Assembly: GCA_965209055.1 (NCBI GenBank) | Contig: OZ242374.1 | Coordinates: 2,112,001-2,176,000 of the forward strand | Direction: 5' to 3' | Origin: Acidobacteriota bacterium | Lineage (GTDB): Bacteria; Acidobacteriota; UBA6911; RPQK01; JAJDTT01 | DNA: 64,000 bases | Part shown: positions 8,808 to 10,148 of the stretch, one piece after another | Numbering within the stretch: position 1 is the stretch's first letter | Layout of the letters: each line of letters begins with the position of its first letter | The notes under the pieces: model-generated | Told to the model about the DNA's origin: nothing | Seen by the model: the letters and a program-made list of their open reading frames with translations, nothing else | Database searches by the model: none | Program-made: the position numbers and the translations under genes

Positions 8808-10148
8808 GTGGCTCAGTTCAAGGAAGTGAAGATCCCGGCGGGGGACCTGATCGATTATCGGGACGGCCGCCTCGTCGTCGGCGACAACCCCATCATCGGA
8901 GTCCTGCGGGGCGACGGGATCGGTCTGGACATCACCCCGGTGATGCGCAACGTGGTGGACGGGGCGGTGCAGCGAGCCTACGGCGACAACCGCGGCATCT
9001 CCTGGTGCCCCCTCTATGCCGGCCTGGAGGGACTTCGCCACTACGGCAACGAGTTCCCCGACGAGACGGTGGAGGCCATCCGGTACCTTCGCGTCGCCAT
9101 CAAGGGCCCTTTCACCACGCCGGTGGGGGAGGAGACCCACGTCTGCCTCCGCTGCGCCCACCAGCAGTACCATGCCGGCCTCTGCGACAAGTGCGGCAAA
9201 GACGGGGTGACCGAACGTTTCCGCTCCGTCAACGTCCGGTTCCGCCAGCATCTGGGACTCTATGCCTGCGTGCGTCCGGTCCGCTACTTCGAAGGGGTCC
9301 CCTCCCCCAACAAGTACGCCGACAAGGTGAACTTCGTCATCTTTCGCGAGAACACCGAGGACGTCTACGCCGGCTATGACTTCGAGCAGGGCAGCGAGAT
9401 GGCGCGGGCCATCATCGACCTGATCCGGGAACGGGACGGCCGCAGCATCCGCACCGACTCAGGGATCGGGATCAAGCCCATCTCCACCACCGGCACCCGG
9501 AATATCGTCCGCAAGGCCCTGAACTGGGCCCGTGACCAGAAACTGCCCTCGGTGACCCTGGTCCACAAGGGCAACATCATGAAGTTCACCGAGGGCTCCT
9601 TTGCCAAGTGGGGCTACGAGCTGGCCGCCGAGGAGTTCGGCGAAGACACCGTCACCGAGAAAAGGCTCTGGGACGAGCTGGGGGGCGAGATGCCCGACGG
9701 AAAGATCCTGGTGAAGGACCGGATCGCCGATTCCATCTTCCAGCAGATCCAGACCCGGCCGGACGAGTACAGCGTCTTCGCCCTGCCCAATCTCAACGGC
9801 GATTACCTCTCGGACGCCGCCATCGCCCTGGTGGGCGGCCTGGGTCTGGGTCCGGGCGCCAACATGTCCGACGACCTGGCCCTGTTCGAGGCCACCCACG
9901 GCACGGCGCCCAAGTACACGGGGATGGACAAGGTCAATCCCGGTTCCCTCATCCTCTCGGCCGTGATGATGCTGAACCACCTGAAGTGGGGCGAGGCCGC
10001 GGACCTGATCACCAGCGGCATGGAACGGGCCATCCTGGACGGCCACGTCACCTACGACCTGGCCCGGCTCATGAGGCGCGAGGGCCGGGAGGACGTGACC
10101 GAACTCTCCTGCTCCGGCTTCGGCGAGGCGATTCTGGAGAGGATGTAG
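8808..10148 (+). CDS. icd: NADP-dependent isocitrate dehydrogenase (homodimeric) with Cys4 insertion
   Basis: GDGIG, IKGPFTTPVG, RSVN, FRENTED, VHKGNIMK, NLNGDYLSD, EATHGTAPKY (NADP-type KY), VTYDLAR. RBS AGGAGG before GTG. Confidence 0.96.
   Translation: MAQFKEVKIPAGDLIDYRDGRLVVGDNPIIGVLRGDGIGLDITPVMRNVVDGAVQRAYGDNRGISWCPLYAGLEGLRHYGNEFPDETVEAIRYLRVAIKGPFTTPVGEETHVCLRCAHQQYHAGLCDKCGKDGVTERFRSVNVRFRQHLGLYACVRPVRYFEGVPSPNKYADKVNFVIFRENTEDVYAGYDFEQGSEMARAIIDLIRERDGRSIRTDSGIGIKPISTTGTRNIVRKALNWARDQKLPSVTLVHKGNIMKFTEGSFAKWGYELAAEEFGEDTVTEKRLWDELGGEMPDGKILVKDRIADSIFQQIQTRPDEYSVFALPNLNGDYLSDAAIALVGGLGLGPGANMSDDLALFEATHGTAPKYTGMDKVNPGSLILSAVMMLNHLKWGEAADLITSGMERAILDGHVTYDLARLMRREGREDVTELSCSGFGEAILERM

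Follow-up and report, generated by a model that had tools for sequence, protein, structure and literature searches.

A putative metal-binding mini-domain in the phosphorylation loop of an NADP-isocitrate dehydrogenase from mostly uncultured bacteria

Few metabolic enzymes have been studied as thoroughly as isocitrate dehydrogenase (IDH), and the loop that holds Ser113 in the Escherichia coli enzyme (Icd) is the textbook case of control by phosphorylation in an active site. In type I IDHs, the C–d loop and helix d make up the 'phosphorylation loop', which the accessible part of PMC6313988 describes as partly disordered in an archaeal apo-enzyme and as bringing the nicotinamide ribose (through Thr104 in E. 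coli) into contact with isocitrate, so that both ligands are coupled; isocitrate is hydrogen-bonded by Ser113 (accessible part of PMC3590139). In E. coli Icd, this loop is short (TTPVGGGIRSLN, i.e. TTPVG-GG-IRSLN), and the enzyme is turned off by AceK at Ser113. Here, we describe an icd gene located in a 64,000-nucleotide stretch of the genome of an Acidobacteriota bacterium (contig OZ242374.1, positions 2,112,001 to 2,176,000; hereafter the window). Its product keeps the Ser (S140), in a loop that is 28 residues longer: a 30-residue insert with four Cys in the pattern CxxC-x9-CxxC stands in place of the Gly-Gly of the loop.

The described systems closest to this enzyme lack such an insert. 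The predicted structure presented below has the same fold as E. coli Icd (3icd, 1ai2; Foldseek TM (template-modelling) scores 0.86/0.93, 48–50% sequence identity) and the same predicted dimer interface. The best solved match, the Archaeoglobus fulgidus IDH (2iv0; Foldseek E 2.3e-56, TM 0.87/0.93), is devoid of the insert: residues 138–423 of the icd product align with its residues 107–392, and the alignment breaks at query residues 107/138. The Bacillus subtilis IDH (1hqs) has an 'insert region' near the active site that restricts access of the E. coli IDH kinase/phosphatase and that the accessible part of PMC3590139 marks as distinct from the phosphorylation loop, whereas the insert studied here lies inside that loop. 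The 1hqs alignment breaks around the loop like those of the other solved IDHs (query residue 138 corresponding to chain residue 102). To our knowledge, the B. subtilis 'insert region' contains neither a cysteine nor a metal site.

Outside the IDH family, zinc-ribbon modules (eL40, Rpb12, Nop10, RanBP2-type fingers), which dominate the weak structural matches reported below, likewise carry two CxxC knuckles at β-hairpin turns, but these matches reach at most Z 4.0, no sequence relationship is detectable, and the present element is inserted internally, within a loop of an enzyme, and its spacer is short (9 residues). A further likeness is to adenylate kinase and ribosomal protein S4, whose folds differ from that of IDH: in these housekeeping proteins, a small hairpin module is stapled by a structural Cys4 metal site, for which some lineages have substituted non-Cys residues, and the forms have spread horizontally. 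The LID of adenylate kinase holds a Zn-Cys4 site in many Gram-positive bacteria and hydrogen-bonded His/Ser/Asp/Thr residues in E. coli. Zinc and non-zinc forms of S4 are described in the accessible part of PMC3087516 (as regards adenylate kinase, PMC4141199 does not mention zinc). In the full-text literature, outside of which lie subscription-only papers, we found no IDH described as having an insert with Cys residues or a metal, nor did we find the insert in any solved structure (phmmer against the PDB chains; Foldseek); the remark of a first-pass annotation of the window that it knew of no such described IDH thus stands within this scope. We see here no new kind of system but a very well-known enzyme in a new structural form, one that is widespread among uncultured bacteria.

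The icd gene (8808–10148, + strand) is complete, starts with GTG and encodes a 446-residue homodimeric NADP-IDH of type I, akin to that of E. coli. The protein matches Pfam Iso_dh (PF00180; E 2.9e-74, 250.9 bits for a cut-off of 27) and passes the cut-off of NCBIfam NF005425 for NADP-dependent IDHs (506 versus 490 bits). By contrast, it falls under that of TIGR00183 (window 8808–10145; 537.6 versus 567.3 bits), because the insert splits the match to this hidden Markov model in two. Several sources name insert-bearing homologues merely 'isocitrate/isopropylmalate family dehydrogenase', a vagueness that may stem from this split match. A phmmer search of all PDB chains returned 2iv0 as the top match (E 4.7e-133), E. 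coli 1ai2 having an E-value of 7e-126. The pairwise alignment pairs E. coli S113/N115/R119/R129/R153 with S140/N142/R146/R156/R180, Y160/K230/D283/D307/D311 with Y187/K254/D308/D332/D336, and the NADP-specificity residues K344/Y345/V351/Y391/R395/R292' with K369/Y370/V376/Y416/R420/R317, all of which are kept. These are what we take to be the substrate, metal, catalytic and NADP-determinant residues of the E. coli enzyme. By alignment, then, the product is an IDH whose catalytic and NADP residues are intact, in agreement with the first-pass annotation, which had noted intact motifs outside the loop. A clade-specific Cys, C67 (9006–9008, in ISWCPLYAG), replaces a Met of E. coli and occurs in 157 of the 174 proteins with the insert.

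The source genome, a single contig of 6.08 Mb that is 98.4% complete, contains four Iso_dh genes; the three others score as LeuB, a tartrate dehydrogenase-like protein and an isopropylmalate dehydrogenase (IPMDH). The tartrate dehydrogenase-like paralogue (L002, G000:C1:5057478-5058503) scores 470.7 bits, just above the cut-off of the tartrate dehydrogenase equivalog (470.4), and a second IPMDH-like gene adjoins the canonical LeuB gene. Monomeric IDH was not found in this genome. This leaves the insert-bearing enzyme as the sole IDH recognisable in the source genome, and the possibility that a second IDH makes it dispensable was discarded, as none was found there. From its being the sole IDH of a genome of this completeness, we infer that the enzyme must be active with its insert. 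It would be the housekeeping homodimeric NADP-IDH of the organism, converting isocitrate and NADP+ into 2-oxoglutarate, CO2 and NADPH, an activity deduced from the absence of any other IDH among the genes found.

The insert is delimited by two conserved motifs. Residues 103–142 of the protein read TTPVG-EETHVCLRCAHQQYHAGLCDKCGKDGVTER-FRSVN, the insert (E108–R137, 9129–9218, + strand) being made up in order of EETHV, CLRC, AHQQYHAGL, CDKC and GKDGVTER. The TTPVG motif (T103–G107, 9114–9128) is the strand end ahead of the insert and aligns with E. coli T104–G108, while FRSVN (F138–N142, 9219–9233) includes S140 and N142, which align with E. coli Ser113 and Asn115 and are conserved in at least 90% of 105 IDHs with and without the insert. 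In the three alignments shown by phmmer, the match breaks at query residue 107 and restarts at 138, the E. coli equivalents being 108 and 111; 30 residues therefore replace G109–G110, with a net gain of 28. For all full-length type I IDHs of the PDB table, the second stretch of the match starts at 138 or 139. These data bear out what the first-pass annotation had read from positions 9129–9227 (E108 to S140), namely about 28 extra in-frame residues with four Cys beside the isocitrate-binding Ser, down to the exact sequence. The two knuckles are C113-L-R-C116 (9144–9155) and C126-D-K-C129 (9183–9194). The G+C content at third codon positions is 0.867 in the insert, compared to 0.909 ± 0.041 in 30-codon windows of the gene, so that the codon style is native, as had also been noted. 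The insert has a native composition and characterises the clade as a whole, which rules out a recent foreign insertion into icd; an intein or mobile element is ruled out by the size of the insert (30 residues) and its conservation.

Homologues were collected by word-index searches and by a genome scan. With residues 90–155 as the query, a word-index search gave 270 protein clusters at E ≤ 1e-3 among 273 candidates. Out of the 120 clusters listed, 119 fit the loop pattern, their inserts being 30 or 31 residues long and containing four Cys, and the remaining one, P0086, carries the same insert, so that all 120 possess it. In P0086, P0278 and L054:6046-6189, FQSIN replaces FRSIN, which places a Gln at the residue aligned with E. 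coli Arg112. Pooling the insert-bearing proteins of three word-index searches and of a search of representative sequences yielded 198 proteins, of which 185 (the window's own included) have CxxC-x9-CxxC, within 31 residues in 182 cases and 30 in three; 12 others have a different, 32-residue version, and P0315 a 14-residue one. The latter protein (429 residues) bears a truncated insert, EETHVCLHCAHTER, without the second knuckle, through a natural deletion or else a faulty assembly. The genome scan, performed with a 76-residue query including the flanks, detected at least 260 relatives; the insert is present in all of the best 80, which were kept, while the other 180 may include insert-less enzymes.

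The four Cys are invariant in the 174 full-length Cys4 proteins and in the 80 loci, in line with the conservation that the first-pass annotation had proposed to look for among homologues. Each of the four Cys positions is encoded by TGC in some loci and by TGT in others, so the Cys have been kept by selection and do not simply reflect a recent origin. Among 151 distinct 31-residue inserts, C6, C9, C19 and C22 are invariant, and so are L7, Q12, Q13 and R31; E1, E2, V5, G17 and D26 are almost so. Judged from these alignments, the conservation of the insert is far beyond chance. It is of the same order as that of the enzyme as a whole, with a mean majority fraction of 0.878 versus 0.863 for the rest of the protein (rank 211th of 416 windows, 174 full-length Cys4 proteins). 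Three features of the insert deserve mention. The Q12/Q13 pair, which is Q119/Q120 in the window protein (9162–9167), lies between the knuckles and is found in 151/151 distinct Cys4 inserts; since these residues are not metal ligands, their contacts may be with the body of the enzyme or with a ligand. Position 29 (aligned with T135, 9210–9212), on the returning stalk strand, is a Thr in 93 of the 151 inserts and a fifth Cys in 49 (DGVCER). Finally, the window insert is one residue shorter than usual, with GKDGV (9195–9209) in place of GKDDGV, a trait common only to P0002 and P0003 (3/185).

All insert-bearing sequences form one clade with maximal support in the Shimodaira–Hasegawa-like approximate likelihood-ratio test (SH-aLRT 100), whether the insert columns are kept (58 rows) or the insert residues are removed (56 rows; a quick tree under the posterior mean site frequency model, from which the two long-branch rows P0167 and P0173 were excluded). 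The insert-bearing clade thus has a single origin. In an exhaustive search of representatives at 50% identity, application of the loop pattern to the best 150 revealed the insert in three (P0131, P0250 and P0122, the last from a basal group) and a 2-residue linker in 53. Another 92 were off-pattern, being fragments or having divergent motifs (including P0237, a fragment that ends inside the insert), and two matches were spurious (P0137 and P0195; the actual loop of P0137 has a 2-residue linker).

The taxonomic distribution is wide and patchy. The records of the 80 loci are all titled metagenome-assembled genomes, and their phylum labels are Gemmatimonadota (26), Acidobacteriota (15), Fibrobacterota (9), Krumholzibacteriota (5), Myxococcota (4), Eiseniibacteriota (3), Planctomycetota (3), Fermentibacterota (1), Bacteroidota (1) and Pseudomonadota (1), 12 loci having none. 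No clearly cultured strain was seen among the named sources of insert-bearing proteins or loci. The insert query hit 9 of 201 sampled genomes of the source phylum (5 of 134 genera) and 6 of 201 in the phylum of G201, a Gemmatimonadota-labelled genome. It matched all five genomes of the source genus, the source genome included, and none of 11 further genomes from that order. Canonical IDHs (TTPVG-GG/TG/RG-IRSLN), 61–63% identical to the window IDH over residues 138–446, were identified in four out of five members of the order that were tested. Insert-bearing IDHs labelled as belonging to other phyla are 76–84% identical to it over the full length. Because same-order relatives carry the canonical insert-less IDH and the clade is a patchy minority, these comparisons suggest that the insert-type gene has spread horizontally among mostly uncultured bacteria of several phyla and has replaced the resident IDH in the source lineage.

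A subgroup of 12 clusters (P0310–P0314 and P0316–P0322) bears on the role of the four Cys. In the corresponding region (residues ~106–137), its members keep the insert length and both stalk motifs but only two Cys, as exemplified by P0311 (EETHVCLATGKQGSREELLAKHGCRPEDVTER). A His occupies position –2 of each remaining Cys in 12/12 members, which gives the pattern H-x-C...H-x-C, and the first Gln (Q12) is retained. Such a pattern could be due to Cys2His2 ligation or to a single disulfide. In the 58-row tree with the insert included, the subgroup is monophyletic and nested in Cys4 lineages (support 98 and 96); its derivation from Cys4 forms is likely, though not secure. The exchange of two of the four Cys with retention of the hairpin points to a replaceable structural staple rather than to a specific Cys4 redox chemistry, a redox switch being one of the readings put forward by the first-pass annotation. 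Indeed, this is the pattern that a structural cross-link with exchangeable ligands would give, which supports the staple.

The full-length AlphaFold2 model, built from a 105-row alignment, has a mean predicted local distance difference test (pLDDT) value of 94.2 and a predicted TM score (pTM) of 0.92, the 10-residue blocks that overlap the insert having pLDDT values of 78–88. In this model, DSSP assigns strands at 111–113 and 134–136 and bridges at 119–120 and 124, corresponding to a two-strand stalk with two knuckle turns. A 47-residue fragment modelled alone displays the same strand pattern (core pLDDT ~80, mean 67.8), and both models predict the knuckles to be at β-hairpin turns. Foldseek matched the full-length model to insert-less IDHs only (TM 0.82–0.88 by query, 0.88–0.94 by target). 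When the fragment was compared with 48,161 chains by VIA-align, 44 had Z ≥ 2 and none Z ≥ 5, the best one having a Z of 4.0 and a root-mean-square deviation of 3.8 Å over 41 aligned residues. The titles of 13 of the 44 name zinc fingers, rubredoxin-type or metal-binding domains, and most of the others (ribosomal, RNA polymerase II, H/ACA ribonucleoprotein, MCM and Nob1 entries) are presumably holders of zinc ribbons as well. A search of the ESM Atlas with residues 105–140 gave no usable match. Taken together, the models are consistent with a zinc-ribbon-like fold of the insert, though they do not prove it.

The model of a homodimer with two Zn scored 0.86, the best of three controls scoring 0.00. 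In a calibration made without small molecules and without this alignment, 20 of 30 proteins whose solved form is a pair of one chain attained the mark used, as did 1 of 23 whose solved form is a single chain; the two Zn are not scored. The dimer runs agree in at least 95% of contacts, with a partner pLDDT of at least 91; the pass may come from the predictor's memory of solved IDH dimers. The interface consists of the canonical clasp and helices, and just residues 104 and 106 among residues 103–140 are listed as contacting the other subunit, unlisted residues being uncertain. The insert would therefore lie outside the predicted dimer interface.

We hold it to be somewhat probable, in part on the strength of these models, that the insert serves as a structural Zn(Cys)4 staple, constitutive and not a regulatory switch, by which the phosphorylation loop is pre-organised and shielded. 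The short, flexible, Gly-rich C–d loop would have been swapped for a self-contained mini zinc-ribbon, in which the stalk strands EETHVCL and DGVTER would pair with each other and the two CxxC knuckles at the tip would most likely hold one structural Zn(II). By stapling the hairpin, the metal would generate a rigid knob at the lip of the active-site cleft and would keep the flanking ligands placed, that is, T103/T104 for the NADP ribose and S140/N142 for isocitrate. As the ends of such a compact module meet, these ligands could stay in place while the knob projects.

Several points weigh against a constitutive zinc staple. First, when the insert is removed from the alignment, the nesting of the HxC...HxC subgroup in the Cys4 lineages persists, but the supports drop to 54, 37 and 10 and P0316 stands apart. 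Second, the structural matches are weak (Z ≤ 4.0), and such values are common by chance. Third, predicted Cys4 sites do not all bind zinc (accessible part of PMC11241148). Fourth, the invariance of Q12 and Q13, which are no ligands, suggests a role beyond mere stapling, and an insertion right beside the catalytic Ser is located where a regulatory element would work best. The position of the insert and the Gln pair at its tip thus leave room for an additional role.

A possible, if unlikely, alternative is that the insert is a redox- or metal-sensing switch: oxidation of the four Cys or loss of Zn would unfold the knob and displace T103/T104 and S140, turning IDH off or on independently of AceK. 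Such a switch would be well placed, between the Thr pair that binds the NADP ribose and the Ser that binds isocitrate, the strict invariance of the four Cys would be accounted for, and Zn(Cys)4 redox switches are known in Hsp33 and RsrA. The phosphorylation loop couples the two ligands, according to the accessible part of PMC6313988, and AceK (PF06315) was not detected in any of five insert-bearing genomes (the source genome and four others), the E. coli control being positive. However, isocitrate lyase (PF00463) was not found in these five genomes either, while 8 of 14 control genomes were positive; there is therefore no glyoxylate branch point to gate, which lends no support to the gating of flux through the tricarboxylic acid (TCA) cycle put forward by the first-pass annotation. 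Furthermore, the HxC...HxC subgroup has exchanged two of the Cys, conservation of the insert does not exceed that of the enzyme core, and no thioredoxin-like or other partner is conserved near the 80 loci. Turning off a source of NADPH during oxidative stress would also be counter-intuitive. The missing glyoxylate branch, the ligand-swap subgroup and the merely average conservation of the insert thus argue against a flux switch of the AceK kind. In a bolder version, which we consider unlikely, a zinc-thiolate sensor would have evolved independently in the AceK-controlled loop as a kinase-free, post-translational means of controlling TCA flux and the supply of NADPH, the HxC...HxC forms being desensitised or retuned.

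It is rather improbable that the knob is a docking module, i.e. a surface handle for a regulator, a metabolon partner or the formation of higher oligomers of dimers. Its predicted location outside the canonical dimer interface would probably leave it exposed, the invariant Q12 and Q13 at the tip are non-ligands, and RanBP2-type and NZF fingers are among the weak structural matches, such small zinc ribbons often binding proteins. To evaluate the genomic neighbourhood, the window open reading frames (ORFs) of at least 100 residues (window 1–22,000) were compared by tblastn with the 80 related loci. No conserved icd neighbour or operon partner was detected: the upstream ORFs match at most 6 of the 80 loci and the downstream ones at most 7, IDH alone being widely common. 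No candidate partner emerged, and the interaction module suggested by the first-pass annotation finds no neighbouring gene to support it; besides, the gene seems to move on its own between phyla, which is hard to reconcile with a lineage-specific partner. The nearby genes encode a class IV aminotransferase (7689–8561, – strand), divergent from icd, a protein with tetratricopeptide and ankyrin repeats (5371–6720, – strand) and an M19 membrane dipeptidase (12753–13769, + strand), none of which has an obvious tie to IDH. Long antisense ORFs over icd (e.g. 7689–9251, – strand) prolong the frame of the aminotransferase and are artefacts of high GC content.

That the insert holds no metal, with the four Cys engaged in disulfides or the hairpin maintained by hydrogen bonds alone, is very improbable. 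The two-Cys subgroup could carry a single disulfide staple, and some predicted Cys4 fingers are indeed without zinc in the study cited above (PMC11241148, accessible part). Yet the enzyme is cytoplasmic, and disulfides are rare in this compartment; CxxC...CxxC at predicted hairpin turns corresponds to a classical tetrahedral metal site, and the His that precedes each Cys in all 12 two-Cys members fits Cys2His2 ligation. Lastly, a rubredoxin-like Fe(Cys)4 centre that would exchange electrons with the dehydrogenase is scarcely credible: the Cys4 knuckles, the second of which is followed by a Gly (CDKCG), and weak structural matches to rubrerythrin (Z 3.1) and rubredoxin B (Z 2.0) speak for it, but the spacer is of 9 residues versus ~29 with an aromatic-rich core in rubredoxins, IDH transfers a hydride to NADP and needs no one-electron carrier, and the HxC...HxC subgroup would not support such a centre.

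The insert provides a simple sequence marker for annotation, which would be of use since TIGR00183 now scores such proteins under its cut-off. The clade would also illustrate clearly how a housekeeping gene can be replaced by horizontal transfer. More broadly, a whole clade of IDHs, detected in no fewer than 80 genomes at species level, mostly from uncultured members of the Gemmatimonadota, Acidobacteriota and other phyla, has a putative metal-binding mini-domain in the Ser113 loop. If the insert were a switch, it would represent a new mode of TCA control. If it is structural, it would offer a clean natural case of loop rigidification by a zinc staple, with a natural ligand-swap variant for comparison, which would be of value to enzyme engineers and to studies of induced fit in IDH.

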